Numbered from the stretch's first letter, positions 4,426 to 62,648 are shown. The stretch: 64,000 nt of DNA from Saprospiraceae bacterium (GCA_020627535.1 JAHDGU010000001.1:164670-228669), one strand, 5' to 3'. Made by a program: numbers and translations. Notes: a model not told the origin generated them from the letters alone.

Positions 4426-6755
4426 GGATTGACCAAGAAGCTAGCGGAGATTTTAAATCCTCCATCCATCTTATATTCAAAAGATCCACCGCACTCTTCG
4501 GCTCGTTGACGCATGCTTTGAAGACCAAGTCCAGAGGTCTTGATTTGTTGTGGATCTGGCTTGCCATTGTCTTGGATGGTCAGGTGTAGCATAGCACCTT
4601 CATCCTTGATTATGGCCTTGATTTCCGATCCGCCGCTGTGCTTAAGTGCATTGGTGATGGCTTCCTTGTAAACTAGATAGACGTTTTGTCGAGTCTTGGG
4701 ATGGATTTTCCTATGCTCTTTGAGCTTGCTTCTCAGGCTGATACTCTGATGGCTGAGATTGTCGCTCTCCGCGGTAAAGTCTCTCATGCGATCGATGAGA
4801 TCCGAGGTGTTGTCTTTGCGAGAGTCAATCGCCCAGACTGTGTCTCGCATGCTTTGCATGGCTTGACGGCTCATCTTGGCCAAGTTTTCTGTGGCTGCCT
4901 TGTCTTTTTCACTACTGAAGTCGTTGAGCAACTCTGACTGCATGGCTAGACCTGTCAGCGTGGAGCCGACCTCATCATGCAAGTCACGCGAGAGCTGAGA
5001 TCTGAACTGCTCTCTCTCTGATGCTCGTTGCTTATTGATGCGCTGTCTTTGGAGTTGATTTCCGAGATAAACCAGCAGCCCAAAGAATATCAGGGTGGCG
5101 ATCGTCAGCCAGCGCCATAGGCGTTTTTGACTACTTTCTTTTTGGCTCTGGAGCTCAAGACTGAGGATCTCCTTATCTTGCTCCGCGGTCTTATATTTGG
5201 TCTCCCACTCAGTGATGGCTTGCGTGCGCTCAGATCGATACATGCTATCGCGGAGTATAGCATAGTCTTCTAATGCTTGAGATTGGGCTCTGGGATTGTC
5301 ATAGCGCTTGTAGAAGCTACGCATAGTCTTGAGAGCGAGTAGCTGATTTTCCACATTGCCTTGCTCCTTGCTCATCGCATATGCCTGCTGCAGCTGCGCT
5401 TCGATTTCTGCCAGTGAGACAGGTACATTTTCAGTCTTGGCACTTTTATCACCGTCGCTTTGGTCGTATAGATCTGCGTAAAGCTCAGCCAGATTGATGA
5501 GGATCGCAGCTTGCTCGGGCTTCAGGCTAAGCTCGATGGAGGATGCCAGTGCATCTTGCAAGATCACATATGCTTCTTGGTGTCTCTCAAGAGAGATGAG
5601 ATCTTGACCAATTGCTTGATTGATTTCTAGAACGAGCTTTTTTTGCTGGAGTGGAGTTGCAAGTTTTTTGGCCTTGAGGTGAGATTGGAGTGCTTCGCTG
5701 TGTGCTGTCTGCGCCCGATGACAGTTGCCGATGCGTAGAGCATTGTATGCTTGTAAGAATTCATACGAGAGCTCTTCGGCTATTGCATTTGATAGACCAA
5801 AGCTCTCCATGGCCGACGGATAATCCTCCAGATCATACTTCACAGCGCCAATATTGTGATGCGCTAGCGCTGCACTACGTCGATTGCCTAGTCGCTCCTT
5901 GATCTCGAGGGACTGATAGTAGTACTGAAGTGCCTGGTCATACAGGCCTTGAGTGTGAGCTATATTCCCCAGATTATTAGTGACGACGGCAATCTGTGTT
6001 TCGTGATCGACCAGCATTGCAAGATCCAGTGCCTGGCGATAAGACTCGTATGCTTCTTCATATCTGCCAGCACTTCGATGGAGTCGCCCTTGTGTGCTGT
6101 ATGCTGAAGAGACCGCGGTAGTCATCTCATGCGACATCTCATTTGCACGAAAGTGCAGTGCTCGATCCAGTACCCCAAGTGCAGAATCAGGCTTACCATC
6201 ATCTCTGAGTTGCTGTGCTTGCTCTACAAGTGTGTAAATGATATTGGCGCTATCGTTAGTATTCCGATAGATCATTAAGGCAGAATCTGTCAGGCTTTGA
6301 GCCAAGGAGTGTTCTCCGCGCTCCTTGGCGAGCTCGCCAAGGCCCAAGAGAGCTTTGCCTTGGAATACTGTCAAGCCACTAGTACTTGCCATGTCGAACA
6401 AGACATAATACATCGACCCCGCCATCTCGACTTCTCCAAGCTGCACCAGTCGACCTGCCGAGAGGTGAGTCAATCTATGGGTACAGCTATCTCCCGTACA
6501 TTTTTTTCGGGCTTCCGCCAAAATGACCTCAAGGTCCTCTGGAAATCGAGTCTTGCCAATGAGTCTCGTGAGGGACTCTTCCACATTGACCACTTCTTCA
6601 TCTTGATATGCTGCCCAGTGATCCTTAAATGTGATTTGTCCTGGAGGCGCTTGTGCGTGAGTCACAGCCAGAAAAAACACCTGACAAAAAATGACGACAA
6701 CAAGATGCGCTGGTCGGAAGAGGGGTAATAGGAGAGTGACTTTTCTCCTGATCAT
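4422..6755 (-). CDS. Sensor histidine kinase: TPR-repeat sensor region, one TM, HisKA_3 + HATPase_c
   Basis: N-terminal signal/TM segment. About 450 aa of TPR-like repeats (YSTQGRLHRSAGRYEEAYESYRQALDLA and similar). TM WRWLTIATLIFFGLLVYLG. H-box LSRDLHDEVGSTLTGL. ATPase motifs KEAITNALKHSGG, DNGKP, GLGLQSM. Confidence 0.85.
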   Translation of the reverse strand: MIRRKVTLLLPLFRPAHLVVVIFCQVFFLAVTHAQAPPGQITFKDHWAAYQDEEVVNVEESLTRLIGKTRFPEDLEVILAEARKKCTGDSCTHRLTHLSAGRLVQLGEVEMAGSMYYVLFDMASTSGLTVFQGKALLGLGELAKERGEHSLAQSLTDSALMIYRNTNDSANIIYTLVEQAQQLRDDGKPDSALGVLDRALHFRANEMSHEMTTAVSSAYSTQGRLHRSAGRYEEAYESYRQALDLAMLVDHETQIAVVTNNLGNIAHTQGLYDQALQYYYQSLEIKERLGNRRSAALAHHNIGAVKYDLEDYPSAMESFGLSNAIAEELSYEFLQAYNALRIGNCHRAQTAHSEALQSHLKAKKLATPLQQKKLVLEINQAIGQDLISLERHQEAYVILQDALASSIELSLKPEQAAILINLAELYADLYDQSDGDKSAKTENVPVSLAEIEAQLQQAYAMSKEQGNVENQLLALKTMRSFYKRYDNPRAQSQALEDYAILRDSMYRSERTQAITEWETKYKTAEQDKEILSLELQSQKESSQKRLWRWLTIATLIFFGLLVYLGNQLQRQRINKQRASEREQFRSQLSRDLHDEVGSTLTGLAMQSELLNDFSSEKDKAATENLAKMSRQAMQSMRDTVWAIDSRKDNTSDLIDRMRDFTAESDNLSHQSISLRSKLKEHRKIHPKTRQNVYLVYKEAITNALKHSGGSEIKAIIKDEGAMLHLTIQDNGKPDPQQIKTSGLGLQSMRQRAEECGGSFEYKMDGGFKISASFLVNP

Positions 6756-6852
6756 AGGACTACTGGTTCAGACCTACAAGATAGTTTTATTATTTGGAGT
6801 GCGAAACGGTGTTCTTATTCCTCAATTGGCCAGCCCGATCCTGCGAAGGCGA

Positions 6853-7086
6853 CTATGAAGCCAAAGAATACTTCGCCAATAGATTTTGTAAAAGGGCTTC
6901 GCGTACGATGCCTGCCACATTGCGTACCTGTAGTTTTTGCATGATCTTCTTGCGATGCGACTTGACGGTCTCGTCACTGATGTAGAGTCTCTGTGCGATT
7001 TCCTTGGTGCTACACTCTTGGACAATGAGCTCAATCACCTCTGATTCTCTTGTGCTTAGGCGGGTTTCGTGATTTTGAATTCTCAT
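6853..7086 (-). CDS. Stand-alone LuxR/GerE-type HTH regulator (77 aa, no receiver domain)
   Basis: LSTRESEVIELIVQECSTKEIAQRLYISDETVKSHRKKIMQKLQV is a full GerE helix-turn-helix. ATG at 7084-7086. Confidence 0.75.
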   Translation of the reverse strand: MRIQNHETRLSTRESEVIELIVQECSTKEIAQRLYISDETVKSHRKKIMQKLQVRNVAGIVREALLQNLLAKYSLAS

Positions 7087-7539: not shown

Positions 7540-10068
7540 ATGAGATACGCTATTGTTGCTATTTTTCTTGCCTATTTTTCTGACCTCAGTGCTCAAGAAG
7601 AACTGCTTGTTCATCGACTCAATCAAGAGCTTGCTTCAGGAGTTTGCTCAGATTTGCAGTTTGAAGTTTCTTCCTATTACCAGAATTCCAAGAGCAAGAT
7701 CCAATACTTGTATGCCTATCCCTTTATTCAGGGCATACGAATTGCCAATCACCAAGTCCAGTTGGTCGCTGACGAAAAAGGGCAGTTGATTCACAGTCAT
7801 CTTCTCACGTGTGATTGGGATGATTCTCAGTCAGAGCATCTGAGAGGTATGGAAGAGTCTCTGTGGCAATATATCCAGTCGAAAGAGTATGATGTCGATC
7901 TGAGCGCGTATTCAGCTCAGCTTTCACAGGCCAAGTGGGAAGTTGAGAATCCCTCGGAGATCCTAGAGGAGATGCAGGCAGAAAAGGTCTATTATTTGAC
8001 ATCGACAGAAGTACGAGACTCAGACGGGTCTAGTTCTTTGCAATTTTCATTGAGAGCGGCCTACGAAATCCATATTCGTGAAAGCTCAGGAAATCACTGG
8101 TGGAACGCGATCGTGAGTGCTAGCGATGACGAAATTCTGCAAGATCAAGATCTTGTCTTGCACTGTGAGTTTCATCATGTCAAGGCTCCGAATCATGATT
8201 GTGGCCATGATCATTCAGAAAATCTTCAGGCGACGATCCCCAATTCATACAGAGTTCTACCCCTATATGTGGAATCACCATCACACGGTGATTTTACCTT
8301 GGAGGTGGATCCAGCAGATTTGGACGTAAGTCCCCTAGGATGGCATGATGACGGTACGACGAGCTACACGGATACACGGGGCAACAATGTGGACGCCTAC
8401 GAAGATCGAGATGCCAACAATGCTCCTGGATACAGACCAGATGGTGGAGCAGACCTTGAGTTTGATTTCTCTTTTGATCCCAATAGCCCTCCGATCAACA
8501 GTGAGGATGCGATTATCACCAATCTCTTTTATTGGAACAATCTGATGCATGATGTATGGTATCGATATGGTTTTGATGAGGCATCAGGAAACTTCCAAGA
8601 GGACAATTTCGGCAATGGCGGGATAGCAGGAGACTATGTAAGAGCAGAAGCTCAAGATGGATCCGGTACCAATAATGCCAACTTCAGCACACCGACAGAT
8701 GGTGGCAATCCTAGGATGCAGATGTTCCTCTGGACTGGCGTGGCCCAGCTCGAGATTACCAATCCTTCGAGCAGTGCAGGATTCTACAACTACAGCGCAG
8801 CAGGATTTGGCCCGTCAATCAATAGCAATATATCTGGTAACATCATCCTAGCATATGATGCCAATCCGGACAGTTCGCAAGCTTGTGGTGCAATTGTAAA
8901 TAGCGCGGAGGTCAATGGAAATATCGCCTTGGTAGATCGTGGAGCCTGCTTTTTCGAGACCAAGGTCAACAATTGTGAAGCTGCTGGTGCGATCGCTGTC
9001 ATTGTATGTAATAATCAGCCGGGTGCAGGGACATTCGGTATGGGAGGTGTGGATACGATACCTGACCCAGGCATTCCGTCTATAATGATCAGCTACGAGG
9101 ATTGTCAGACTATCCGGATGGATCTTGACAATGGACTGGCCGGGACGATTGAGAGTGAATCCATTGCTTTTGACTCGGATCTAGACAATGGGATTATCTG
9201 CCACGAATACGGGCATGGCATCAGTATACGTTTGACGGGTGGTGCGGGGACCAATAGCTGTCTAGGCTCTGCCGAGCAAATGGGTGAAGGCTGGTCAGAT
9301 TACTTCGGTCTTGTGATGTCCCAAAAGCCTGGTCATACTCACGATCTGCCTCGTGGTATCGGTACCTATGTGCTCGGGCAGGATACACTGGGATCTGGAA
9401 TCAGGCCGGCAGAGTACTGTACGGATTTTGCAGTGAATGACTTTACCTACGACGATATCGACCAGGTCTCTCAGCCACATGGTGTAGGATTTGTCTGGTG
9501 TACCATGATCTGGGATATGACATGGGCACTAGAGAACCACTACGGCTATGAGCCCGATATCTTCAATGATTCTAGTAGTGCTGGGAATATTGTTGCTTAT
9601 CACCTAGTAATGGAAGGACTAAGACTACAGGCATGCAATCCTGGATTTGTGGATGGAAGAGACGCTATATTGATGGCAGATTCGATTCTCTACAACAAGG
9701 AACACGAATGCATCATATGGAATGCGTTTGCACGACGTGGACTAGGCTTTAGTGCAGATCAAGGCTCAGCGAATAATCGGAGCGACGGGGCGGAAGCTTT
9801 TGACCTGCCAACTGGCTGTGATGCTTTGAGCTATGAGGAGCTATTTGTCATTGGTCCCAATCCTTGTGATGGCGACAATCTAGTAATTGAAGATCCCATC
9901 ACGATGGATTCTACTTACAGAGCCAAGTTTTTGATAGAGAGTAATGCCACCATCGGCTCTGGTCTAGATATTATCTATCAAGCTGGGCAGTCGATAGAGC
10001 TAGATACCAATTTTACGGTAACTACTGGTGCCTTGTTTGAGGCGAGGATCGATCCTTGTCAGGATTGA
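7540..10068 (+). CDS. Secreted fungalysin-like (MEROPS M36) zinc metalloprotease with an inserted PA domain
   Basis: Signal peptide MRYAIVAIFLAYFSDLSAQ from the ATG at 7540 (the track ORF begins at an upstream TTG at 7519). Zinc motif HEYGHGIS and downstream GEGWSDY as in fungalysins. PA domain IALVDRGACFFETKVNNCEAAGAIAVIV. The C-terminal approximately 90 aa (...AGQSIELDTNFTVTTGALFEARI) is not a classical T9SS tail. Confidence 0.8.
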   Translation: MRYAIVAIFLAYFSDLSAQEELLVHRLNQELASGVCSDLQFEVSSYYQNSKSKIQYLYAYPFIQGIRIANHQVQLVADEKGQLIHSHLLTCDWDDSQSEHLRGMEESLWQYIQSKEYDVDLSAYSAQLSQAKWEVENPSEILEEMQAEKVYYLTSTEVRDSDGSSSLQFSLRAAYEIHIRESSGNHWWNAIVSASDDEILQDQDLVLHCEFHHVKAPNHDCGHDHSENLQATIPNSYRVLPLYVESPSHGDFTLEVDPADLDVSPLGWHDDGTTSYTDTRGNNVDAYEDRDANNAPGYRPDGGADLEFDFSFDPNSPPINSEDAIITNLFYWNNLMHDVWYRYGFDEASGNFQEDNFGNGGIAGDYVRAEAQDGSGTNNANFSTPTDGGNPRMQMFLWTGVAQLEITNPSSSAGFYNYSAAGFGPSINSNISGNIILAYDANPDSSQACGAIVNSAEVNGNIALVDRGACFFETKVNNCEAAGAIAVIVCNNQPGAGTFGMGGVDTIPDPGIPSIMISYEDCQTIRMDLDNGLAGTIESESIAFDSDLDNGIICHEYGHGISIRLTGGAGTNSCLGSAEQMGEGWSDYFGLVMSQKPGHTHDLPRGIGTYVLGQDTLGSGIRPAEYCTDFAVNDFTYDDIDQVSQPHGVGFVWCTMIWDMTWALENHYGYEPDIFNDSSSAGNIVAYHLVMEGLRLQACNPGFVDGRDAILMADSILYNKEHECIIWNAFARRGLGFSADQGSANNRSDGAEAFDLPTGCDALSYEELFVIGPNPCDGDNLVIEDPITMDSTYRAKFLIESNATIGSGLDIIYQAGQSIELDTNFTVTTGALFEARIDPCQD

Positions 10069-12597: not shown

Positions 12598-15294
12598 TCA
12601 CTCCACCTTCACGATCTTCTGCACACAAAGTGCACTATTGCCAGGGTCATACACCTTCACGAAGAACAATCCATTGCCCAGTAGTTCTGTATTGATATTG
12701 ACCTCTGTTCCTACATTGGGGAGCTCTTGGATGAGTGTACCACTCGCATCCAGTATTTGAAGTCGATATGATGGAAGATCTCCTTGGATCCTGAAGTAGT
12801 TGTCCACAGGATTGGGGAAGACTTCGATGCAGCTAATTGTCGCCTCTATCTGTCTCGAACTGGTAGCAACTTCACTGCAATCATAATCTCCACTGAGTGC
12901 ACCGTAGACGACAGCTGCTGTGACACTGTTTTGGTTGATGGTAAACTCGCCGGTGAGAGGACTTGGGCGCTGTTCGAAGAATCGCTCATGTCCTGGCCAC
13001 TCTTCGATGGCAGGATATACATTTTGATCAGGCCAGTGATGCTCCCAGGGACCGACATTGAAGAGTCCTCCACGTCTCCATGGACCATATGGTACAATAC
13101 CGGCTTTGATTTCGCCTTCTCCCGTAGCCCAGCTATCGAGATGCAGCAGACCTTGAGGGCTTTTTTCGCCGATACCAGTGATCCAAGTCATACCTAGAGG
13201 ATTGGTCCCGAGGAAGTAGTCTGCCGTAGTGTGTATGTACTTGAGGTAGTCAGCTGCCTTGGTAGGATCAGTGCCTTGCAGTATGGCGGACATAAACACT
13301 GCTTCCGCGACAAATGGCGTCGTGCCGTGCCCTACGAGCATAGGGAAGTAGTGGTTCCCTCCCCAGCGACAAGCGCGGAGATCAACATTGTCAAGAATAA
13401 GGAAATCCGCAGTCTGTATCATTTTGTCGCTGACGATCGTGCGTTGACTGGCATCTTGGTTGTCTGCATCGGTCATGAGGTAGATCAGAGCACCGTAGGC
13501 CTGCTCACCTTGGACATTTTCCCAAAACTCGAGCCCCGCCTGATCCCAGCTCTGCTCAAAATCTTGCTGATAGAAATCATTTTCTGTGAGTCTGTAGAGA
13601 GCCGCGGAGGCGAAGCTTCGCTGCCAGATCATCTCGTAGATATGACAAGCAAAGTCAGGGTCATATTGCGCATTGGCCCAGGCATATGCATCGATGGCTT
13701 CTTGCTCCCAGTCGATCTCCTCCGGATCAGTCCAGCCATTAGTCTCTAGGAGGTAGGCGATCTGCGCGGCCACGCCTGCGTAGTAGTAGCTCATGATCGG
13801 ATCAGGAGCGGATACGACCCAGATGCGATCTGTATCTTCCCAGCTGCCTCGGATAATATCATCATCGCCGAGATCGTAGCCCCAGAGATCACCAAATATC
13901 CGTCCACCTGGCACACCTCCTGTCGTGTAGCCTTTCTCCTCTGTTTCTTGCTTGAGATGATAGTAGAATCTCGGCAACCATCTCGCTTCATCAAAGACAT
14001 CTGGTAGTCCATTGCCACTCTCTGCGATCTGTAGCTGGCCATCGACGAAGTTGTCTCCGTACAACTCTAGCAGTATCAGTAGCTCCACAGGGACTTCCAT
14101 ATGTCTGATGTACGCGTCCCAGTCGCCAGCGTCCTGGTACCACCCAGCAGTCTCGATATCTCCGAGGATGCCAGCATCCCAAGTGGCCTTGTCATCCTCT
14201 GAGGCATCCTCGTCTGTCACATCGCAGATAGATACGTCACTATACTTCAGCTGCCCTGCAAATCCGGGTGTCACAGCAGGATTGTGTGGCGCTGGACGTG
14301 TGGCTTCCGTGTGCGGATGATCCAGAGCAATTCCACTGCGCTGATTGTAGAGGCCCTTCATCACCAGTTCGAATGCAGGCCTGAGACCATTGCAAGCAAG
14401 GTCAAACTCATGAGATCTGCCGATACCATCAACCACGAGGTAGTAGGATCCAGGCGTATTGTAAGCACTAAAATCACACTCGTATACCTCAGCACTATTG
14501 AAATTTTGATTCGGGGTTTCATCGCTATCATCGACAAATGTCTCTTGCGTCATCTCATCCTTGCGAAAAGTCAGATTTCCTGTGAAGACTGCATCGCCTG
14601 ATGTCGCATCGATAAGACGAAATTCATTGCCAGCGTAGCTGCTAAGATCCAACTTGCCGCCGTCTCCCATCCAATGATATACGTAGGCATACTTGAGCTC
14701 TGCATTGGTAGAGTAGGCTAGATTGTTGACGTGTATAGCAGGAGAAAGGAAGCTGTTTTCATCATATTTTAAGATCCATTCTGTCTGATCTGGACTGATG
14801 GCTTGATCTATGTTGATCTCGTAGGTCTTACCCGGTTCTAGTGCAATAGGTAGCTCCAGATACAGCCAGTGTTCCTTGGCATGATCAGGCTCTTGATTGG
14901 CACATCCCCAGACACCATAGTAGTCCAGGAGCTCCCAGCCTTGACACACATCTAGGAATTCTGTAGGCTTGCTTTTTCGCGAAAGCGATACTGGACTCTC
15001 CCCACTGCCATAAGCTGCATCATCAGGCGAACTGATCATGTAATTGTTGAGGTCTTCGGCAATGGGTATATCCAGCAGATCTACGAAGATCTCTCCACTA
15101 TTTTTAGGTTCACCGGCTTTGGGCTGTAACACATAGCCTTCATCGACATGGATCAAGAGGATCTTATCTGTGAGCATGGTCAGCTCCACCTCACTTTGGG
15201 CCATGATCTGGTCGGTCAGGCAGGTCAATAGGATAAGGACTAGAGCAGATTGTAGGACTTTCATTGTTGCAAATGATTTGAACTTCACTTGCAT
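12598..15294 (-). CDS. Secreted glycoside hydrolase family 9-like endoglucanase with a T9SS type-A C-terminal sorting domain
   Basis: Signal peptide (an alternative start at 15264 gives MKVLQSALVLILLTCLTDQIMAQ). N-terminal Ig-like region. GH9-type motifs AGWYQDAGDWDAY and ...GEFTINQNS.... The last approximately 80 aa, FPNPVDNYFRIQG...LFFVKVYD..., is a Por/T9SS tail. Confidence 0.7.
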   Translation of the reverse strand: MQVKFKSFATMKVLQSALVLILLTCLTDQIMAQSEVELTMLTDKILLIHVDEGYVLQPKAGEPKNSGEIFVDLLDIPIAEDLNNYMISSPDDAAYGSGESPVSLSRKSKPTEFLDVCQGWELLDYYGVWGCANQEPDHAKEHWLYLELPIALEPGKTYEINIDQAISPDQTEWILKYDENSFLSPAIHVNNLAYSTNAELKYAYVYHWMGDGGKLDLSSYAGNEFRLIDATSGDAVFTGNLTFRKDEMTQETFVDDSDETPNQNFNSAEVYECDFSAYNTPGSYYLVVDGIGRSHEFDLACNGLRPAFELVMKGLYNQRSGIALDHPHTEATRPAPHNPAVTPGFAGQLKYSDVSICDVTDEDASEDDKATWDAGILGDIETAGWYQDAGDWDAYIRHMEVPVELLILLELYGDNFVDGQLQIAESGNGLPDVFDEARWLPRFYYHLKQETEEKGYTTGGVPGGRIFGDLWGYDLGDDDIIRGSWEDTDRIWVVSAPDPIMSYYYAGVAAQIAYLLETNGWTDPEEIDWEQEAIDAYAWANAQYDPDFACHIYEMIWQRSFASAALYRLTENDFYQQDFEQSWDQAGLEFWENVQGEQAYGALIYLMTDADNQDASQRTIVSDKMIQTADFLILDNVDLRACRWGGNHYFPMLVGHGTTPFVAEAVFMSAILQGTDPTKAADYLKYIHTTADYFLGTNPLGMTWITGIGEKSPQGLLHLDSWATGEGEIKAGIVPYGPWRRGGLFNVGPWEHHWPDQNVYPAIEEWPGHERFFEQRPSPLTGEFTINQNSVTAAVVYGALSGDYDCSEVATSSRQIEATISCIEVFPNPVDNYFRIQGDLPSYRLQILDASGTLIQELPNVGTEVNINTELLGNGLFFVKVYDPGNSALCVQKIVKVE

Positions 15295-15406: not shown

Positions 15407-15958
15407 TTATTTTCCGTGATTCGCCTGCCAGTCTTTGACAATCTGTGGTGGCTCTTCTCCTTCCGCGACAAAGATGAGTGACGCAGAATTCATACAGTAT
15501 CTCAAGCCTGTGGGCTCTGGCCCATCTTTGAAGACATGCCCCAGATGAGATCCACTTCCGCTATCCACTACTTCTATCCTGACCATACCGTAGCTTTTAT
15601 CGACGACCTCGACTACGGCATCTTCCTCAATCGGCTCGTAAAAACTTGGCCAACCAGTACCTGAGCGAAATTTCGTCTCTGAGCTGAATAAGGGCTGACC
15701 AGTGGCAGCAGAGTAGTAAATGCCTTTCTTCTTATTGTCCCAATACTCACCTGTGAATGCACGCTCAGTACCATGCTTGCGCAAAATGTAAAACTGCTCA
15801 TCCGTCAGCTGTTGCTTCCACTCTTCATCCGTCTTTTGGACTGGGTAGTTTGTATGATCATCAGACGAAGTGCTTTTTGTCTGACAAGACACGGGTAAGA
15901 ATGCAAGACAAAGACCAAGAACCAGTGAAAATCTCATAATACGCTTGTTTGACATCAT
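15407..15958 (-). CDS. msrB: Peptide-methionine (R)-S-oxide reductase MsrB, exported/lipoprotein form
   Basis: [20 protein letters not shown] and [21 protein letters not shown] are MsrB hallmarks. The likely start is [26 protein letters not shown] (lipobox-like). The track ORF extends to 16039 through an unlikely N-terminal extension. Confidence 0.9.
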
Positions 15959-44659: not shown

Positions 44660-44748
44660 ATTTCCTTTGATTTTGTGTTAGTTAAAATTGGATATGCCTG
44701 CAAGATCATACTCCGTGCCAAGGCATGTTCCATGACATTATTTCCGAT

Positions 44749-44814: not shown

Positions 44815-44857
44815 GCCTCCGCATTTTGGCGAAAGCCTAGAAATAAAATGAATGATA

Positions 44858-51163: not shown

Positions 51164-53047
51164 TCAAGGACTCATGTATTCCCATGCCGATCTGTAAGCA
51201 TTGACTGACTCAGCGAGATCGAGCAATTTGTCATAGGGGTAGTGTCTGCCAAGAGTGGAGAAGTCACCAATGACGACAAGTTTTTTCTTCGCTCTTGTCA
51301 ATGCAACATTGATCCTGCGGGCATCAGAAAGAAATCCTATCTCACCCTTGTCATTGGACCTGACGAGGCTGAGATAAATGACATCGCGCTCTTGACCTTG
51401 AAATCCATCAATACTATTGGCCGTGACATCTATGCCGCGAAAGAGATCCTCGGATTCGAGCTTTTCTCTGATCAGTTTTACTTGACTCACATAAGGGCTG
51501 ATGATTCCGATATCTTGCTCCTCGTATTTTGAGATATTTTGACGGAAGTGCTCTTCAAGGATAAAGTACTCTCCTGGATTGTGGCTACTTGTGCTATCAT
51601 AGTGCCGTGCCTCGTCAAATCCACATCCACTGGTATCGATCACCACCAAGGGTTGATCATCCAGAGAGCGCTCCGCGACAGATGTGTCAGAGACCAACTT
51701 TCCTTCATAAAACTCTCGATTGCTAAAGGCTAAGATCTGGTCATGCATACGATACTGCGTGGTCAACAAGTGACTCTTTGAGATGCGTCCCATGAGGAGA
51801 TCGAGCATCGTGACACCGAGCCCTAGCTTCTGAGCTTCAGCTGATTTGACCGTAGGAGGCAACTGTTTGTGATCTCCTGCAAGGATGATGCGCTCGGCTC
51901 GCAGCATAGCATTCCAGCTTTCTGCTTGCAGTGCCTGAGATGCTTCATCGATAACCACTGTACGAAATCTCATGTCTGACACATCTGGATGGCTCAAGCC
52001 AATGAGCGTGCTACAAATAACTTGTGCACCGTCAAGCACAGACTGCGTGATGCGCCTCTCAAGATCTCTCGCCCATTTATTGAGTTCTCGGGCTTCTTTG
52101 TGCAGCATCTTTCTTTGCTCTCGCTGACTGGGGCCGTATTTCCGTTTGAAGACCTCTGCCTGTCTCTTGGCTTCTGCCGCCTCTATTTTGATCTTTTTGA
52201 TGTGATTCCAGTCTTGGTGCCCACGGGCTCTTTCTGCCAGACTCAGTGAGATGGCACGCTCGCTGACTCTGGTGACATTTCCGACGCGTACGACATCCAG
52301 GCCGATTTCTTGGAGCCTTTCGGCCAAAAGATCCACCGCATTGTTGCTGGCCGCTGTGACCAGGATTTGCTTCTCTTGATGCGAGAGCTCTTTGATGAGC
52401 CTTGCCAGGGTAGTCGTCTTGCCAGTGCCTGGTGGTCCATGTATGATCCCTACGAGTTCGCTATCAAGCATACCTGCTATTGCCTGATTTTGGGAAGGAT
52501 TGAGTCCATAGTGTCCAGAGGATGCAGGAGCCTGTTCTTGATGAGTGATTTCATCAGTTGCTGAGTAAAGCAGTTCTCGGAGACGGGCGGCAGGTCCAGA
52601 TCGCAGAGACATGGCTGTCTCAAGAGCTTCTTTCATGACGCGATAGGGGCGCTCGTCATAGATCCGCTCTACAGATGCTCTCGTTTTCCTGGAGACTTGT
52701 TTAAGATCATAGACTTCTTTGCTAAGGATGATGCCCATAGTGTCCCTTCGGACAAATGAGACTGTGCCACTATACTGTGCTCCGTCTTGATCTAGGAAGC
52801 TCAACTGGCATCCAGTGCCTGTTTTAAAACTATGAGAGCCTTTAATGGCGGGTCTTTGGATGACCACTTCGATCGCTTCTCCCAGTGTGTAGTGTGCCTT
52901 AGTGATCTCTATCGGGTACCAAGCCATACCAGACTCGACCTTTTCCTTTAGACTCTTTTTGGCCGAAAGGCCGCGAAAATACTCGAGCTCTGCAAGCCGC
53001 TCTGCCTCAGTAGCATCGATCAACCTCTGTATAGAATCTGTCATCAT
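51164..53047 (-). CDS. Superfamily-1 (Upf1/IGHMBP2-like) AAA helicase
   Basis: N-terminal beta-barrel region. Walker A GPPGTGKTTT. DEASQ (motif II). Later helicase motifs QYRMH, GFQGQERDVIYLSLVRSN, RRINVALTRAKKKL. The ATG at 53047 is preferred over the track TTG at 53071. Confidence 0.85.
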   Translation of the reverse strand: MMTDSIQRLIDATEAERLAELEYFRGLSAKKSLKEKVESGMAWYPIEITKAHYTLGEAIEVVIQRPAIKGSHSFKTGTGCQLSFLDQDGAQYSGTVSFVRRDTMGIILSKEVYDLKQVSRKTRASVERIYDERPYRVMKEALETAMSLRSGPAARLRELLYSATDEITHQEQAPASSGHYGLNPSQNQAIAGMLDSELVGIIHGPPGTGKTTTLARLIKELSHQEKQILVTAASNNAVDLLAERLQEIGLDVVRVGNVTRVSERAISLSLAERARGHQDWNHIKKIKIEAAEAKRQAEVFKRKYGPSQREQRKMLHKEARELNKWARDLERRITQSVLDGAQVICSTLIGLSHPDVSDMRFRTVVIDEASQALQAESWNAMLRAERIILAGDHKQLPPTVKSAEAQKLGLGVTMLDLLMGRISKSHLLTTQYRMHDQILAFSNREFYEGKLVSDTSVAERSLDDQPLVVIDTSGCGFDEARHYDSTSSHNPGEYFILEEHFRQNISKYEEQDIGIISPYVSQVKLIREKLESEDLFRGIDVTANSIDGFQGQERDVIYLSLVRSNDKGEIGFLSDARRINVALTRAKKKLVVIGDFSTLGRHYPYDKLLDLAESVNAYRSAWEYMSP

Positions 53048-55440: not shown

Positions 55441-56736
55441 ATGAGTGCTTTGCAGCGCGAGTATCAAGAGACCATTGATTACCTTTTTAACACGATTCCT
55501 GCTTTTTTCAGAGCTGGAAAGACTGCCGTCAAAAAGGATCTCAGGAATATCAGACTCCTTTGTGATCGTCTAGGCGACCCACAGTCAGATCTTAAGTGCA
55601 TTCATATTGCTGGTACCAATGGAAAGGGCTCCGTGAGCCATATTCTAGCTAGTCTTTATCAAGCCTCAGGGCTCAAAGTAGGGCTCTACACCTCACCGCA
55701 TTATGTAGACTTCAGGGAGCGCATCAAGATCAATGGTGAGTGCTGTGATCAGCAATTTGTGATCGATTTTGTGTCTGCACATCGTGATCTTTTTGAGGAA
55801 ATCATTCCGTCATTTTTTGAAGTGACCGTGGCCATGGCCTTTCAGTATTTTAAAGAGCAATCAGTAGATCTTGCGATCATCGAAACAGGGCTAGGTGGAC
55901 GACTAGATAGCACCAATATCATTGAGAGTCAACAACAGATCATTACCACCATCGGCTTCGATCATATGGATTTTCTAGGAAACACGCTAGAGGAGATCGC
56001 TGGTGAAAAGGCGGGCATCATCAAGACAGGTGGATCAGTGGTCATAGGGGAAACTATCGTGGATAGTGCTCGAGAAGTCATTTTGGCGAAAGCCTCTGAG
56101 AAGAGAGCCGTGGTGGAAGCCACAGAGAGTGTGGTAGATGTGACGCTGAGTGATGCGGGGGAAATCCAGATCTCGACAGGAGGAGTAAGCTGCACTTGCC
56201 CATGTGACCTCTCAGCGAGCTACCAAGCTGATAATTTGAAGACAGCATTGGCAGCCTACATGATAGCCAATGAACCTTGGGAGGAGTCTGTCCTGGTGAG
56301 TATCTTGAGGCGTGGTCTGGCTGACATATCTCGTCGCACAGGCATGATCGGACGCTGGCAGCAGATACAAGATTCTCCTGTGGTGATTGTCGATGGCGCT
56401 CACAACGAACAGGCTTTTGAGCATCTAGTCAAGGAGATCGAGCGCAGAGGCCCCGACCACTGTATCGTCCTCCTCGGCTTCAGTGCCGACAAGGATGTGC
56501 AAGCACTGATTGATATGCTGCCAGCCGTCAAGCGTAAATTATTCACCTCAGCAGCAATGAGTCGTGCCATGAGCAAGGAACAATTTCAGGAGATTTCTGG
56601 CTCAGGAGACTTTGAGATGATAGAGAATTCTTCTCTTGCCTTATCTCAGGCAATTGCTTTAGCCGATGAGGATGATGTTGTTATCTGTAGTGGCAGCATT
56701 TATCTCGTGGGAGAGCTGCTGGCTAGTAGAGTATGA
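55441..56736 (+). CDS. folC: Bifunctional folylpolyglutamate synthase / dihydrofolate synthase
   Basis: HIAGTNGKGS P-loop, Mur-ligase fold, ETGLGGRLDSTN. Confidence 0.92.
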   Translation: MSALQREYQETIDYLFNTIPAFFRAGKTAVKKDLRNIRLLCDRLGDPQSDLKCIHIAGTNGKGSVSHILASLYQASGLKVGLYTSPHYVDFRERIKINGECCDQQFVIDFVSAHRDLFEEIIPSFFEVTVAMAFQYFKEQSVDLAIIETGLGGRLDSTNIIESQQQIITTIGFDHMDFLGNTLEEIAGEKAGIIKTGGSVVIGETIVDSAREVILAKASEKRAVVEATESVVDVTLSDAGEIQISTGGVSCTCPCDLSASYQADNLKTALAAYMIANEPWEESVLVSILRRGLADISRRTGMIGRWQQIQDSPVVIVDGAHNEQAFEHLVKEIERRGPDHCIVLLGFSADKDVQALIDMLPAVKRKLFTSAAMSRAMSKEQFQEISGSGDFEMIENSSLALSQAIALADEDDVVICSGSIYLVGELLASRV

Positions 56737-59458
56737 GCGGAAACTGCTGTCGCGTTTCGCCGTCCAGTAATTCAAGAATGTAGTATCCCGAAGGCAAATG
56801 CGCAAGATCTTTCGTAGTCCTGAACATTCTACCTATCTCTGACATCTCTGTCCATCTTTCAAGGCTTCTTCCTTGAAGATCCCAGATTGTCAGTTGCACC
56901 AACTCACTCTTGGCATCAGGATACCGAATTTGAATATACCCTTGTGTTGGATTTGGAAAGGCCGTTAGTCGTTCAAAATTGGGAAATTCCTCTGTATAGA
57001 CTACGTTACTGACCAGGTGCATTCGATCCTCAGCGATACCCTTGATGAAGTAGAAGCTCTCTCCAAAAAGTGGCTTATTGTCTCTGGCGGTTCCTTCGCT
57101 ACCAGAGAATCCATCCAGCGCATCATAGAATTTGAAAGGCTCATCTTTAGGTGCTCTCCAGAGCTCAACCTGAGTGATTCCTACACTAGATCCGATGAGC
57201 TCAAATGGCAGATCAATGTAGGTGTTCTTAACGTCAGCGCTCAGAACGAGACTTCGATCTTCATCGAGCAAGCAATTTGGGTAAATCTCCACTTCATCTA
57301 TGGTAGACAGACCTTGTGGATCTGTCACAGTCAATCTGATGCGATACCAAAATGTCTCGAGATTACAAGGCGTAGGTAAAAGGTCGGCCACTGGTGACGT
57401 CGCTCGGATGACCGGTTCCTCATGAAAGTGAGTATTGTGATGAAAAAAGACTTGCCACTCGTATGTCAGTTCGTCTTCGAGGCTTTGAGCATCTGATACC
57501 TCTGCTCTCAGCTTGTAGAAATGGTCATCATCCTGGTCATAGATGTCTCCGTCGAGAGGAGCGGTAATCCTGACTTGTGGAGGCGAGTTGTCAAGGTGGA
57601 TAGTCGCTGTTGCCGTATCTGAGCGATCAGCACTGTCAGTGACGACCAACTGCACATCTTGTGTCGATGGGCCGTTTGCTGCACTAGTGAAGGTCCTCTG
57701 GAGCGATACCTCGGTCGATCCGCTTCCATCTGGAAGTAGCCACTCATAAGTCAATGGGAGATCTAGAGGATGAGAGCTGCCACTAGCATCAAGATCGATG
57801 GTCAGTGGGCTTTCGCCAAAATGAGTTGAGAGCTTGATCTCTGCTCTTGGAGGCTGATCTGTGCCAAAAGAGATGCGCACGATCGTGTCTTGATAAACCC
57901 TTGTATAGTAAATGTCTTCGGTGATGGGATTGATATTGACCGTGACGACATCTGGCGTAGAAGTGGCGAAGCTGTCAATCTTTGTCACGCGGAATATCTC
58001 ATCCTCTTCTTCAATCACGACTGAGTGGATAAAGCCGTAGAAGTCCGAGAAGATCACGCGCCCTTGATACTCCTCTGGGAGCTTGCTGCCCTGATAGACG
58101 AAGCTAGGGATGCAAGAGAAGCCTGCCATGGTAAAGCCATCAATGATCGCCTCTTCATCCTCGAGATTATAACTGATATCATTGCCATTATCATCGAAAG
58201 AGCCTGCAATGGTTCTCGGCGGATTATTCCAGTTGATATTGGCATAGTTGAACTGAGGTCTAGTATGGATGTGCTTGTACTCCTCTGATATCTCGATTTC
58301 TGGATTGCATTGGTTGGGGAATGCTCTAGGCGAAAAGAGCTTGGGTTGGCGGACGAGTTCATCATAGCTATGAAGGCGCTGTGTACAGGAGGCTCCGTCA
58401 TAGAGTGGGTTGGGCGCAAGGTAATTGGTCGTATCTAGCGAACGGAATGTCCAGCTGAATCCTTGGCCTTCATATTTGGGCCAGCCGAGATTTTCTCCCG
58501 GGCCATGGATGATATTGAATTCTTCATACTGCCAGCTTCCTACATCTCCCATGATGAGAGTACCAGGGCGACCGGCATCGGGATTTGTAGATCCAGTGTT
58601 CGGGATCTTGATGAACTTAAAGGGATTGCGCATGCCCATCGCATACACCTTTGATCTCCATGAGTCTGGCTTTTCTGCGTCATACCAGGGATTGCTAGGA
58701 ATACCCAAGCCAGTTTCTGGATCAAAGCGTAGGATCTTTCCGCTGGGCGAGTCAATATTTTGAGCGCGCCAAGCACCGACATTGAGCTCAGGTTTGAGGA
58801 TGCCATCATCGATTGCCTGCGCATACCAAGTCTCTGGTGAAGAGCCCACATCGCCTGACTGGAAGCTGGCAGCATCTCCTACAGAGAGAAGGAGAGTGCC
58901 ATCAGTCCCAAATACTAGGCTACCCATGCCATGGGATATCATCAGGATGGGGATTTGATCTGTGATCTCTTTACCGAGGATGATTTTGCGACTATTGGGG
59001 ACAAGTGTGCTGAAGTTGGTGGTAGGATCGAGTGTGTATCGTGTGACTCTGCCGATCGTAGCTTCACTGTTTTGATTCACTTCTGGGTCATATTCAGCCG
59101 TACCGAAGTAGAGCAAGTGGTGGCGATCAACGACATAGGCTAGATAGATATCTCCACTTGTCTCAAAGTCTGGAGCAAGGGCCAAACTTGTAAGACCGTG
59201 ATCAGCATAGGCAGCGACCTCTTCCGATATATCCAGGACCGGCTCGGATGTGATCTTTCCATTGAGAGTCATGATGTAGACCTTTCCATCTTTGGAAAAG
59301 ACATAGCCTTGACCATTATGGTCAAATTCGATTCCCAGAGGATTGGAAACCTCATGTTCTATTACCTCATGAAAAAAGCCTTCCGGCAACTCTGGACTTT
59401 GTGACCAAAGACCCCAAGATGAAATGAATAGCGTAGCAATCAGCACATATCGAGACAT
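56723..59458 (-). CDS. Secreted PQQ-dependent sugar (glucose/sorbosone) dehydrogenase-like beta-propeller with PKD-like domain(s) and a T9SS type-A sorting domain
   Basis: Signal peptide MSRYVLIATLFISSWGLWSQ from 59458. GSDH-type motifs (GLTSLALAPDF, MGMRNPFKF). PKD-like LDASGSSHPLDLPLTYEWLLPDGS. C-terminal FPNPTQGYIQIRY...GYYILELLDG. Confidence 0.7.
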   Translation of the reverse strand: MSRYVLIATLFISSWGLWSQSPELPEGFFHEVIEHEVSNPLGIEFDHNGQGYVFSKDGKVYIMTLNGKITSEPVLDISEEVAAYADHGLTSLALAPDFETSGDIYLAYVVDRHHLLYFGTAEYDPEVNQNSEATIGRVTRYTLDPTTNFSTLVPNSRKIILGKEITDQIPILMISHGMGSLVFGTDGTLLLSVGDAASFQSGDVGSSPETWYAQAIDDGILKPELNVGAWRAQNIDSPSGKILRFDPETGLGIPSNPWYDAEKPDSWRSKVYAMGMRNPFKFIKIPNTGSTNPDAGRPGTLIMGDVGSWQYEEFNIIHGPGENLGWPKYEGQGFSWTFRSLDTTNYLAPNPLYDGASCTQRLHSYDELVRQPKLFSPRAFPNQCNPEIEISEEYKHIHTRPQFNYANINWNNPPRTIAGSFDDNGNDISYNLEDEEAIIDGFTMAGFSCIPSFVYQGSKLPEEYQGRVIFSDFYGFIHSVVIEEEDEIFRVTKIDSFATSTPDVVTVNINPITEDIYYTRVYQDTIVRISFGTDQPPRAEIKLSTHFGESPLTIDLDASGSSHPLDLPLTYEWLLPDGSGSTEVSLQRTFTSAANGPSTQDVQLVVTDSADRSDTATATIHLDNSPPQVRITAPLDGDIYDQDDDHFYKLRAEVSDAQSLEDELTYEWQVFFHHNTHFHEEPVIRATSPVADLLPTPCNLETFWYRIRLTVTDPQGLSTIDEVEIYPNCLLDEDRSLVLSADVKNTYIDLPFELIGSSVGITQVELWRAPKDEPFKFYDALDGFSGSEGTARDNKPLFGESFYFIKGIAEDRMHLVSNVVYTEEFPNFERLTAFPNPTQGYIQIRYPDAKSELVQLTIWDLQGRSLERWTEMSEIGRMFRTTKDLAHLPSGYYILELLDGETRQQFPLILY

Positions 59459-60413: not shown

Positions 60414-60839
60414 CTAAGGCGTGAAGTGCCTTCCGATTTTATCGATCACAGCTTGAGGAAGAGTGGTTTTTTTGCGCGAAAGCGCTTCGACATAGCATAG
60501 CCTGACCTTGGCTACACTCAGGAGTTTGTCTGCTTCATTTGTGATTTCAGATCTTACTGAGACCTTCTCATGATCAAATTGTCTGAAGCTAGTCTCGATG
60601 GTCAGTAACTCGTCATATTTGGCTGGGCGGAGATATCGACACTCAAAGTTGAGTACTGGCATGAGGATATCATACTCTTCCTCAAGCTGCCGATAGGAGA
60701 GTCCTACTTCGCGTAATGCCTCTACACGCGCTACTTCGCAGTAGCTGGCATAGTTGCCGTAGTAGACATAGCCCATCTTGTCGGTCTCTGAGTAGCGGAC
60801 CCTGATCTGGGTCTTGAAGCTATTTCGTATTGCTGTCAC
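60414..60839 (-). CDS. YbgC/4HBT-type acyl-CoA thioesterase
   Basis: RVRYSETDKMGYVYYGNYASYCEVARVEALR hot-dog fold signature; 141 aa. Confidence 0.85.
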   Translation of the reverse strand: MTAIRNSFKTQIRVRYSETDKMGYVYYGNYASYCEVARVEALREVGLSYRQLEEEYDILMPVLNFECRYLRPAKYDELLTIETSFRQFDHEKVSVRSEITNEADKLLSVAKVRLCYVEALSRKKTTLPQAVIDKIGRHFTP

Positions 60840-60930: not shown

Positions 60931-61620
60931 ATGTCAGGCATACTCAATAAGATGAAAGGTCTCTTTGTCACAGAGACCGGGGGAACCACTTCAAAAAGCA
61001 AATCGACCAAGGACGAAGCTAAGCCTGAAGAGGAAGTTGAACAAGTATCTCCACAGTCACGCCCATCAGAGGTCACACTAGAGATTGCCGATGTAGAAGG
61101 GCAAGTTGATGACAAGTTTCTTGAAATCTTGCTCAATGCGATGAATGAGGCCAATACCCCGGGTTTTGACTACCTCGAGTATAAGAGATCTCTTGTGAGC
61201 TTGCGCGAAATGAACATGGATGAGCCCACTCGCTATAAGGCGGCCTATGCAACAGCAGAAGCGATGGGGGCCAACCCCGCAGCACTACAAAACAGTGCAA
61301 AGTACTATCTCGATATACTCGGCAAAGAAGATGCGAAGTTTCTGGACGCACTCAAGGCTCAGTCGGTAAAGCGGCTATCTGGTGCTCAGGAGGCCATACA
61401 AGATCTTGAATCTGGAATTCAAGATAAGATCTCTCAGATCGAAAGACTCTCTCAGGAGATCGAAGAGGCAAAATCTGAGCTTTCGCTCAAAAAACAAGAG
61501 CTAGAAGCCAGTCAAGAAAAGCTTGGAAGAACCAAAGCAAACTTTGAAGCCTCCTACTCAAATCTCAGAGATCAGATTGCAAGTGATCTCCAAAACATAT
61601 CAAAATACCTCGCCGGCTAA
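60931..61620 (+). CDS. Hypothetical coiled-coil protein with an N-terminal amphipathic helix
   Basis: MSGILNKMKGLF, an acidic/Ser-rich linker, a helical domain (GFDYLEYKRSL...RYKAAYATAEAMG), and a C-terminal heptad coiled coil (IQDKISQIERLSQEIEEAKSELSLKKQELEASQEKL). No family recognised. Confidence 0.6.
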   Translation: MSGILNKMKGLFVTETGGTTSKSKSTKDEAKPEEEVEQVSPQSRPSEVTLEIADVEGQVDDKFLEILLNAMNEANTPGFDYLEYKRSLVSLREMNMDEPTRYKAAYATAEAMGANPAALQNSAKYYLDILGKEDAKFLDALKAQSVKRLSGAQEAIQDLESGIQDKISQIERLSQEIEEAKSELSLKKQELEASQEKLGRTKANFEASYSNLRDQIASDLQNISKYLAG

Positions 61621-61625
61621 GGAAT

Positions 61626-62648
61626 ATGGCAGAACAAAAACCTAAGACATTTTGGCGAAAGCCTGAAGGAAAACTGGGAGCTATAGTCCTCGCAGGTCTG
61701 ATCATCGGCGCAGGTGCGATTATCACAGCAAGCCTATCGGCCATAGCTAGTTTCGTAGCGACTACGCTGGGACTAGCGCTAAGTCTGCTTGCTCTCGGTG
61801 TGATCATTTTTGTAGCACTTGATAGCAAGGCACGCAGCCTCATCAGCTATATGTACAAGAGTGTGATGCGATGGATTACTGGACTATTTATCGAGATGGA
61901 TCCTATCGCAATTCTCAGAGGCTATGTCTCTGACCTCAAGGCCAATCTGCGAAAGATGAATCGCCAGGTGACGCAGCTCCGCGGCCAGATGCACAAGCTC
62001 AAAGAGCTGATACTCAACAATCAGAAGCAAATCCAATCCAATCTAGAGCTCGCTTCACAAGCAAAGGACACCAACCAACAGAAGGTCATGATCCTCAAGT
62101 CTAGAAAGGCAGGACGACTCAAAGAGTCGAACATGCGCCTTGAAGATCTCTACAAGAGGATGGAGGTGCTCTACAGAGTGCTCTTCAAAATGTATGAGAA
62201 CTCGGAGATCATGATGGAGGACATCAAGGATCAAGTTGAGGTCAAAGAGCAAGAGCGAAAGGCCATCAGAGCATCACATGGCGCTATGAAGTCAGCGATG
62301 AATATCATCAACGGCAATCAAGACAAGCGCTACATGTTTGATATGGCTCTCGAGGCTATCGCCGATGATGTCAGTCAGAAAGTGGGGGAGATGGAGCGCT
62401 TCATGGATATGAGTGAGGGCTTCATGAATAGCATTGATTTGCAGAATGGTGTCTTTGAAGAAGAAGGCCTGAAGATGCTCGAGAAATGGGAAAAAGAGGG
62501 GACGTCACTCCTGCTCGGAGAAAGCAAAGAGACTCTCTTGCTACAAGCCAATGACGACAGCGACGTCCTTGATCTTGACTCACCTATCGCCAAGCCTGAG
62601 CCCGTCAAAGCACGCGGTGGCAACCAGTACGACACATTTTTTGAATAA
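61626..62648 (+). CDS. Membrane-anchored PspA/IM30-like (ESCRT-III-superfamily-like) helical protein
   Basis: A two-TM hairpin (LGAIVLAGLIIGAGAIITASL...LGLALSLLALGVIIFVAL), then about 250 aa of all-helical sequence starting FIEMDPIAILRGYVSDLKANLRKMNRQVTQLRGQMHKLKE...ASQAKDTNQQKVMILKSRK. This has the layout of the PspA helical hairpin. The assignment is by pattern only. Confidence 0.5.
   Translation: MAEQKPKTFWRKPEGKLGAIVLAGLIIGAGAIITASLSAIASFVATTLGLALSLLALGVIIFVALDSKARSLISYMYKSVMRWITGLFIEMDPIAILRGYVSDLKANLRKMNRQVTQLRGQMHKLKELILNNQKQIQSNLELASQAKDTNQQKVMILKSRKAGRLKESNMRLEDLYKRMEVLYRVLFKMYENSEIMMEDIKDQVEVKEQERKAIRASHGAMKSAMNIINGNQDKRYMFDMALEAIADDVSQKVGEMERFMDMSEGFMNSIDLQNGVFEEEGLKMLEKWEKEGTSLLLGESKETLLLQANDDSDVLDLDSPIAKPEPVKARGGNQYDTFFE

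Follow-up and report, generated by a model that had tools for sequence, protein, structure and literature searches.

The stretch of DNA analysed here, a 64-kb window (64,000 nucleotides) from a Saprospiraceae bacterium (GCA_020627535.1 JAHDGU010000001.1:164670-228669), carries 29 copies of a 17-nucleotide (nt) word in which a T-rich 5' flank leads directly into a miniature hairpin. Twenty-six copies lie within genes and three between them, a division proportional to length in a window of which ~88% is coding, and the host genes are unrelated, as an earlier reading made from the sequence alone (the sequence-only reading) had claimed: two histidine kinases, response regulators, GH9, TyrS, CoaE, UbiA, PPK2, an SF1 helicase and others. 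That reading had listed about 22 copies, every one of which shows the pattern when read with its flanks, the copy at 19150-19166 with one stem mismatch (GGGC/GCTC), but its total was an under-count, and seven copies are added here (starting at 3913, 9266, 15874, 25190, 34243, 36541 and 55520). The analysis covers the window and ~61 kb of sister-genome DNA with crude gene calls; positions 1-3530 were mis-called in the gene map (they are part of a 1353-aa gene), a stretch without copies, so that the statistics are unaffected.

Read from the left, the first copy is CATTTGGATGACAATCC (3913..3929, plus strand), with a GACA loop and in sense orientation within a GerE response regulator; the identical 17-mer stands at an unrelated locus of a sister genome (L120, 5481-5497), and given stem/loop combinations thus recur independently. 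A TPR-HisKA_3 kinase holds CATTTGCACGAAAGTGC in antisense (6140..6156, plus) and CATTTTGGCGGAAGCCC in sense (6509..6525, minus), an M36 peptidase holds CATTTGCTCGGCAGAGC in antisense with a GGCA loop (9266..9282, minus), and GH9 contains CTTTTTCGCGAAAGCGA, again in antisense (14972..14988, plus), at a site where the ortholog in the sister genome MAG-106 has no copy. The weakest member of the family, with TT as its 5' flank, is TTTTTGTCTGACAAGAC (15874..15890, plus), which has a GACA loop and lies antisense in MsrB. It is followed by CATTTGGGCGAAAGCCC (18186..18202, minus), antisense in an S74 tail-fibre-like gene and degenerate, with two mismatches, in MAG-106, and by two antisense copies in a HisKA_3 kinase: the mismatched CTTTTGGGCGAAAGCTC (19150..19166, plus), without a copy in MAG-106, and CTTTTGCGCGAAAGCGC (19416..19432, plus), which overlies the peptide ARFRAK and is identical over 19 nt in the MAG-106 ortholog. 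A response regulator contains CATTTTGGCGGAAGCCG in sense (22349..22365, plus), where MAG-106 again has no copy. In the body of TyrS, CATTTTGGCGGAAGCCA (23528..23544, minus) is a sense copy encoding DILAEA that is missing from four relatives and required amino-acid replacements, and the spacer upstream of the same gene carries (TA)CTTTTGCGCGAAAGCGC (24631..24647, minus), overlapping the conserved tyrS -7 box with the ATG 10 nt downstream. The FtsX permease copy ATTTTGAGCGACAGCTA (25190..25206, plus), in sense with a GACA loop, is another weak member.

Further along, CTTTTTGGCGGAAGCCA is antisense in an ornithine aminotransferase (29821..29837, plus), a second CATTTGGGCGAAAGCCC is sense in CoaE, where it reads IWAKA (33111..33127, minus), ATTTTGGACGAAAGTCC is antisense in an M28 peptidase (34243..34259, plus) and CATTTGGTCGAAAGACC is sense in UbiA (36541..36557, plus). 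A second intergenic (TA)CTTTTGCGCGAAAGCGC (39860..39876, minus) forms a TAnnTTTG box with the ppk2 ATG 7 nt downstream. DUF3810 has TTTTTGGGCGAAAGCCC in antisense (41537..41553, minus), and the third intergenic copy, CATTTTGGCGAAAGCCT (44822..44838, plus), lies between secG and groES, antisense to both. The third CATTTGGGCGAAAGCCC (45789..45805, minus) is sense in an unannotated 254-aa gene and once more reads IWAKA. The SF1 helicase carries CTTTTGGCCGAAAGGCT in sense (52314..52330, minus) and TTTTTGGCCGAAAGGCC in antisense (52956..52972, plus), and a Mur-ligase/FolC-like gene carries CTTTTTGACGGCAGTCT in antisense with a GGCA loop (55520..55536, minus) and CATTTTGGCGAAAGCCT in sense, reading ILAKA (56079..56095, plus). 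The last four copies are CATTTTGGCGAAAGCCC, sense in a GSDH-PKD-T9SS gene (57807..57823, minus), TTTTTGCGCGAAAGCGC, antisense in a thioesterase (60469..60485, plus), TTTTTGAGCGAAAGCTC, antisense in an unannotated 229-aa gene (61477..61493, minus), and a third CATTTTGGCGAAAGCCT, sense and only 22 nt inside an unannotated 340-aa gene (61648..61664, plus). A loose-scan match at 29562 (GGT.GGAA.ACC, within the aminotransferase peptide TFGGNP) is explained by the protein and was excluded.

The density in the window is ~1 copy per 2.2 kb. Sixteen copies on the plus strand are interleaved with 13 on the minus strand, 12 are sense and 14 antisense to their genes (p=0.85), and all three codon phases are in use, which upholds the earlier claim of a strand- and frame-independent selection at the nucleotide level. 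Spacing is not distinguishable from random (coefficient of variation, CV, 0.83, p=0.24), leaving regular spacing unsupported, while the orientation of successive copies from 6140 to 61648 switches in 16 of 22 steps, above chance (permutation p=0.04) though weakly so in 64 kb.

The signal withstands every randomisation applied to it. The 8-mer GCGAAAGC/GCTTTCGC, reported to occur 15 times, does so, against 2.0±1.6 (maximum 7) in dinucleotide shuffles, and three long words said to recur 3, 4 and 3 times were all recovered at those frequencies and at the coordinates given for them, with none expected. An unbiased k-mer count ranks GGCGAAAGCC as the top 10-mer of the window, its extensions being the only 12-mers with five occurrences. 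The codon-preserving shuffle that the sequence-only reading had named as a check (200 runs, keeping the proteins and the codon usage of each gene) yielded 1.7±0.8 T-run hairpins (maximum 5) compared with 25 observed, and 3.1±1.4 instances of GCGAAAGC compared with 15. Three paired stem positions are found at 25 of 96 GRAA sites with an upstream TTT (3.6 expected from arm shuffling) but at only 15 of 950 sites without it (16.3 expected). The pairing excess thus exists only where TTT precedes, so that T-run and hairpin form one unit, and a generic excess of GNRA hairpins is ruled out. Chance, codon usage and protein motifs are likewise ruled out, by the dinucleotide and synonymous shuffles and by the vacancy of all 35 word-compatible sites in background genomes (see below).

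When the copies are anchored on the loop, the word has abrupt edges, with information content falling to about zero beyond positions -6 to +10, and inside these edges the profile reads C-W-T-T-T-K, then G-R-A-A between two stem arms of three positions each, and finally C; the C at -6 is present in 18 of 25 copies. The core is therefore not GCGAAAGC, as had been proposed, but a 17-nt word made up of a fixed 5' flank CWTTTK, a freely varying stem of 3-4 bp and a GRMA loop. Both GAAA and GGAA were correctly named as loops, but a free-loop scan showed that GACA and GGCA also belong to the family, sharing the flank, having paired stems and being absent from the background; the tally over all copies is GAAA 29, GACA 8, GGAA 5 and GGCA 3. 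GCAA, GTAA and GAGA occur only as singletons or at chance level in the same scan, despite forming equally stable DNA mini-hairpins, and this restriction to four loops indicates recognition rather than stability alone. Most copies have, at sequence level, at least two G-C pairs closing a G-N-N-A loop in which a sheared G·A pair is possible, while in a few stems the closing pair is T-A. Closure of the loop by a sheared G·A pair is a trait of GCGNNAGC-type mini-hairpins. Measured melting temperatures are 76.5 °C for d(GCGAAAGC), 71 °C for GCGGAAGC, 72 °C for GCGACAGC and 89 °C for CGGCGAAAGCCG, as against 33 °C for GCTTTTGC (PMC13037366).

Evidence that base pairing itself is what is conserved comes from comparing paired with unpaired candidates of a broad pattern, TTTK+NNN+GRMA+NNN, and of a strict one, C[AT]TTT[GT]-NNC-G[AG]AA-GNN. 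The broad pattern is paired at 28 sites and unpaired at 22 in the window (0.44 paired per kb, 56% of candidate sites) and at 17 and 13 in the sister genomes (0.28 per kb), while 1.0 Mb of other Bacteroidota gives 18 paired to 751 unpaired (0.018 per kb), a paired fraction of 2.3% that is near the 1.6% (1 in 64) due to chance. For the strict pattern, where chance would give one paired site per 15 unpaired, the ratios are 18:1 in the window, 7:0 in the sisters and 0:0 in the background. Window and sisters together use 16 distinct 3-bp stems. A fourth pair, outside all search criteria, covaries as well: G at -1 is accompanied by C at +10 in 26 of 30 cases, T at -1 in only 2 of 15 (Fisher p=2.7e-6), and in one sister copy this pair is inverted to C...G. 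The compensatory stem variation noticed earlier is thus borne out by the pairing excess over background, the variety of stems and the covariation of the fourth pair, and it is well supported that what is conserved is the pairing and not the letters.

The word is confined to one clade of Saprospiraceae bacteria. Sister genomes, found through protein searches (scans of genome and metagenome contigs gave no close relatives for the queries used), comprise MAG-106 (GCA_020630495.1; loci L001 and L115) together with L116 and L120-L122, contigs that come from JGI (two samples) and ENA (one sample); their GroEL is 92-93% identical to that of the window, that of every other Saprospiraceae at most 87%. 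Each sister locus contains the strict word, at 0.14-0.21 per kb and with partly different stems (TGC, CCC, GAC, TCC). By contrast, the strict word has no occurrence in 976 kb of other Bacteroidota, sampled irrespective of the word, and was not found in the two nearest outgroups, GCA_024642705.1 and a contig from SRR23272280 (GroEL 87% and 85%), which rules out a general occurrence in Bacteroidota or Saprospiraceae. Two loose matches in a further Saprospiraceae genome, L119, lack the flank and are probably due to chance. A phage origin or carriage of the word is ruled out as well, since a scan of IMG/VR with a 16-mer returned 29 contigs with one match apiece and no extra copies within them, close to the estimated chance level.

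Codon alignments of orthologs show no indels at alignable copy sites, from which it follows that copies were created by substitution. In the body of TyrS, the window reads D-I-L-A-E-A where relatives have S-V-L-S-E-A, H-V-L-A-D-A or D-L-L-S-E-A, residue differences indicating that amino acids were altered to accommodate the word. The extent of this effect was gauged by enumerating all permitted sites, that is, places where the protein sequence allows the strict word through synonymous codons alone. The word occupies 16 of 21 such sites in 56.6 kb of coding sequence in the window and 8 of 11 in 52 kb at the sister loci, but none of the 35 (2.3 per 56.6 kb) in 871 kb of background. About 75% of protein-permitted sites are thus filled, and word-compatible peptides are themselves 5-9 times commoner than in word-free genomes, an excess implying that the word has reshaped proteins.

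Comparison with MAG-106, which shares ~40% identical codons with the window at columns of the same amino acid, reveals both persistence and turnover. In the kinase copy encoding ARFRAK, six of six codons are identical against this 40% baseline, and the copy ahead of tyrS keeps its place with stem CGC/GCG (window) or TGC/GCA (MAG-106 and L116), which amounts to a compensatory change between orthologous sites. Concomitantly, of seven window copies that could be compared at orthologous MAG-106 sites, four are absent and one is degenerate, whereas both copies of L115 are intact in L116 despite 74-80% nucleotide identity. Some sites therefore outlast neutral sequence while most turn over, a behaviour to be expected of a distributed signal, and the word is maintained in each lineage. 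A site in the M36 gene common to L115 and L116 is uninformative, as the window differs there by an indel region. The window and a sister genome each have a copy ahead of groES, but these two are ruled out as an orthologous pair, since they lie on opposite flanks of a conserved dyad. This dyad, GACAGwTTGTCC, is kept in the window (~44740-44800, minus) and in L120 (~9500-9520), and may be a heat-shock operator.

A structural, DNA-level and substitution-driven description of the word can be given with high confidence: it is a dispersed DNA signal peculiar to one lineage, whose definition owes as much to structure as to sequence. A single-stranded 5'-C-W-T-T-T-K flank leads directly into a 3-4 bp hairpin, and copies arise by point substitution in genes and spacers, on either strand and in any frame. 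They are strongly kept or regenerated, with about three quarters of protein-permitted sites filled and amino-acid replacements forced. Duplex DNA cannot extrude a stem of 3-4 bp, and the orientation of the copies bears no relation to transcription, which together point to a word read on single-stranded DNA; the GRMA-limited loop and fixed flank argue for a protein recognising flank, loop and stem. This reader would be a trans-acting factor of the clade, recognising T-rich flank and loop and also whether a stem is present. Equal use of either strand within 64 kb fits uptake or recombinational processing, and lagging-strand priming less. The process favoured here would be one that can expose either strand, namely DNA uptake or the recombinational processing of self DNA, where the word would act as a self-signal promoting uptake or recombination, analogous to the uptake signal sequence (USS) and DNA uptake sequence (DUS), Chi and the highly iterated palindrome HIP1, its abundance being maintained by the resulting drive or selection rather than by the value of any single copy. 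We give this explanation as a whole a probability of roughly 0.4. The broader notion of a new class of genomic signal, a structure-marked chromosome whose mini-hairpins a clade protein would read on single-stranded DNA in uptake, recombination or restart, is a tentative one.

The analogies deserve closer comparison. The sequence-only reading had likened the word to genome-wide signal words rather than to repetitive extragenic palindromic (REP) or miniature inverted-repeat transposable (MITE) elements, a judgement with which the absence of indels and the 26 of 29 copies in genes agree; its further statement that it knew of no such element in Bacteroidota is in keeping with the searchable literature, where no equivalent was found, a survey of prokaryotic motifs giving nothing comparable. 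USS of Pasteurellaceae and DUS of Neisseriaceae are likewise short words found about once per 1-3 kb, in both orientations, mostly in genes and in every frame, and they share a substitution origin, biased peptides, lineage limits with differing usage and the turnover of sites. The proteome bias known from them is evident here in 21 compatible placements per 56.6 kb of coding sequence, compared with 2.3 in the background. Unlike these fixed duplex sequences, with their invariant 9-12 bp core, the present word is fixed only in the CWTTTK flank and GRMA loop, has free stem letters of which pairing alone is kept, lacks the close inverted pairs that form terminators, and belongs to another phylum.

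Cyanobacterial HIP1 (GCGATCGC), the closest analogue, shares the hyper-abundance, the location in genes and the conservation of orthologous sites above expectation, seen here at the ARFRAK site and in both L115 copies retained in L116. Its function was long unknown (PMC5861425), and it has been reported to raise the efficiency of natural transformation (bioRxiv 10.1101/2024.09.10.611283). The extended form of HIP1, GGC-GATC-GCC, even has the GGC/GCC arms of the most frequent copy here, but HIP1 is a single perfect palindrome tied to methyltransferases, whereas the present word has many stems, is not known to be linked to methylation, lacks symmetry because of its one-sided T-run and non-palindromic loop, and does not match the HIP1 octamer. 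In its logic of recognition the word resembles REP elements and their REP-associated tyrosine transposases (RAYT, TnpA-REP), where a conserved single-stranded 5' motif with a class-covarying stem betrays a protein that reads DNA in single-stranded form; the same combination is seen here in the 28:22 ratio of paired to unpaired sites against 18:751 in the background. REPs, however, lie outside genes, measure 20-40 nt, have long imperfect stems and are often paired as REPINs, while this word is 17 nt long, was not inserted and is within open reading frames (ORFs) in 26 of 29 cases. Chi, too, is over-represented in chromosomes and read on one strand, labelling self DNA for repair by recombination, but it is 5-8 nt long, unstructured and strongly co-oriented with replication; the 16 plus and 13 minus copies are interleaved and no polarity is seen in the 64 kb of the window. 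The phenomenon belongs with the hyper-abundant intragenic genomic words and is distinct among them in its structure-based definition.

Several points weigh against the proposed explanation. A role specifically in uptake or recombination is a guess, its grounds being the analogies above and the even use of both strands within 64 kb, and the uptake sequences known so far are duplex words of constant sequence rather than structures. To our knowledge, natural competence is undocumented for Saprospiraceae; the literature search found no paper on it, nor any uptake-type signal in Bacteroidota. Nearest-neighbour folding assigns the hairpins -2.5 to -4.9 kcal/mol, with equal values for the complementary strand, and the special stability of the GRMA strand is derived from the literature (PMC13037366), whose melting temperatures support a strand asymmetry that nearest-neighbour folding misses. 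Finally, the overlap of two copies with promoters, considered below, may mean that some copies have a transcriptional meaning.

Among the alternatives, the word could be a signal for priming or for the exclusion of single-strand-binding protein, the mini-hairpin marking the place where a primase or restart primosome starts on exposed template, a mechanism proposed for the phage G4 origin and plasmid ssi signals. Recognition defined by structure is compatible with this, and Okazaki fragments are comparable in length to the 2.2-kb spacing of the word, the density being of the same order. Moreover, GCGNNAGC-type hairpins with a sheared G·A pair are read as single-stranded DNA by a primase or polymerase at the G4, St-1 and α3 origins, at RSF1010 ssiA and at the promoters of the N4 virion RNA polymerase (PMC13037366). 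Those are nevertheless single sites on phage or plasmid DNA, and in the literature searched mini-hairpins were met nowhere but at such lone initiation sites, with nothing on repeats in Saprospiraceae, whereas chromosomal copies of this word probably number in the hundreds. A lagging-strand signal should also be polar, and 16 and 13 interleaved copies show no orientation bias in 64 kb; nor does the hairpin have a conserved initiation trinucleotide on its 3' side, where information content is zero past +10. Priming is accordingly an unlikely function.

A second alternative denies the word any function, regarding it as the footprint of a clade-specific templated bias in mutation or repair that writes the word into near-matches, for instance through gene conversion from a plentiful single-stranded template or through correction templated by hairpins. 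Rapid turnover (five of seven copies absent or degenerate in MAG-106) and the near-saturation of compatible sites, which resembles drive, would suit such a bias, and intrastrand template switching can form perfect stems in a single step. Yet one template cannot specify flank and loop while leaving 16 different paired stems, and a generic correction of quasi-palindromes is excluded by the GRAA hairpins without T-run, which are not in excess (15 against 16.3 expected). Conservation at some sites well past neutral expectation, and the overriding of amino-acid sequence by the word, are further arguments that make this origin improbable.

In a third alternative the word would serve to organise the chromosome or nucleoid, a function proposed for HIP1, its copies being places along the chromosome where a nucleoid-associated or SMC-type factor binds or is loaded. 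Its hyper-abundance, in-gene location and conservation do recall HIP1 (PMC5861425), and successive orientations alternate slightly beyond chance, as noted above (16/22, p=0.04). But binders of duplex DNA read bases and not intrastrand pairing, so that covariation over 16 stems is unexpected, and the spacing is random-like (CV 0.83, p=0.24) in a window that, at 64 kb, is short for periodicity; such a role is distinctly unlikely.

The promoter overlap raises a transcriptional alternative, in which TTTG would be the end of a -7 box with the hairpin acting at initiation or as a sigma-dependent pause, and intragenic copies would be internal or antisense promoters or pauses. A TAnnTTTG box is found 5-25 nt upstream of the tyrS start codon in five Saprospiraceae genomes (window 24621-24650, minus; L115 1425-1447; and the tyrS upstream regions of L116, L117 and L119), a distance implying that the leader is very short or nearly absent. 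The hairpin follows this box in both word-positive lineages and only there, L117 and L119 having the box without it. The earlier suggestion of a match to the Bacteroidota -7 consensus is thus sound for the tyrS and ppk2 copies, the latter with an identical TACTTTTG box and both with the full TAnnTTTG 7-10 nt upstream of the start codon, but it fails for the family, as TA at -8/-7 is present in these two of 25 copies only. In the usual geometry of Bacteroidota promoters, transcription would start within or after the hairpin. The hairpin would then not be part of the RNA, and the tyrS and ppk2 copies are unlikely to act as RNA. With 26 of 29 copies inside genes and in both orientations, the family as a whole is not promoter-like, and a transcriptional role of the word is very improbable.

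Still less probable is an RNA element, a GNRA tetraloop hairpin with a U-run that would affect how stable an mRNA is, how it is processed or which proteins bind it. The loops GAAA and GGAA do belong to the classic GNRA type, and sense copies would give the mRNA a UUUU stretch with a GNRA hairpin; but the parity of sense and antisense copies (12 and 14) makes the RNA half of the earlier 'single-stranded DNA or RNA signal' unlikely, antisense copies would be transcribed with UUUC-type loops, and GACA and GGCA loops are used likewise. With the T-run 5' of the hairpin, and an A-run 3' of it on the other strand, neither strand yields an intrinsic terminator. No known RNA family was matched, Rfam 15 at its gathering threshold giving no hits in the window, be it for tRNAs, riboswitches or any other family. 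Insertional spread of a miniature mobile element (REP/RAYT or MITE type) has in its favour the REP-like architecture, in which an invariant single-strand 5' motif precedes a hairpin whose stems covary, but is hardly credible and largely refuted, given alignable ortholog sites without indels, 26 of 29 copies in ORFs that stay intact in all frames, and a 17-nt unit without target duplication or flanking conservation.

USS, DUS, Chi and HIP1 are rare visible cases in which a DNA process overrides protein coding, and each such word has pointed the way to a particular molecular machine, except that HIP1 has posed a question open for 30 years. The present word adds a case from a different phylum, with a constraint on intrastrand pairing that points to single-stranded DNA as the form read, and, if the proposed explanation is true, it would give Bacteroidota their first self-signal of the uptake or Chi type, no earlier one having been defined by base pairing. 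Its sharp clade boundary (GroEL at least 92% as opposed to at most 87%) means that a comparison of gene presence and absence could nominate the partner protein, and its shortness suits clean oligonucleotide tests. In practical terms, roughly one site per 2-3 kb displays codon and amino-acid choices dictated by DNA.

Some minor features of the locus remain to be mentioned. No copies occur in ~7.5 kb formed by window positions 1-3912 and the 3.6 kb past the left edge (L125, 16601-20183), which may be recently acquired or fast-evolving DNA. This region carries a second S74 tail-fibre-like gene, and window positions 1-3530 are part of the 1353-aa gene mentioned above, which is Chlam_PMP-like, lies on the minus strand and extends past the window edge. 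A 401-aa protein (36640-37845, minus) has both an HD and a PycTM (Pycsar effector) domain and, judged by this domain make-up, is a candidate anti-phage effector. Among the commonest 8-mers of the window are many that contain GATC (GATCTTGA, CAAGATCA, AGATCTTG, TGATCATG and others), an abundance that may reflect codon or dipeptide usage, or else a second compositional peculiarity of this genome.

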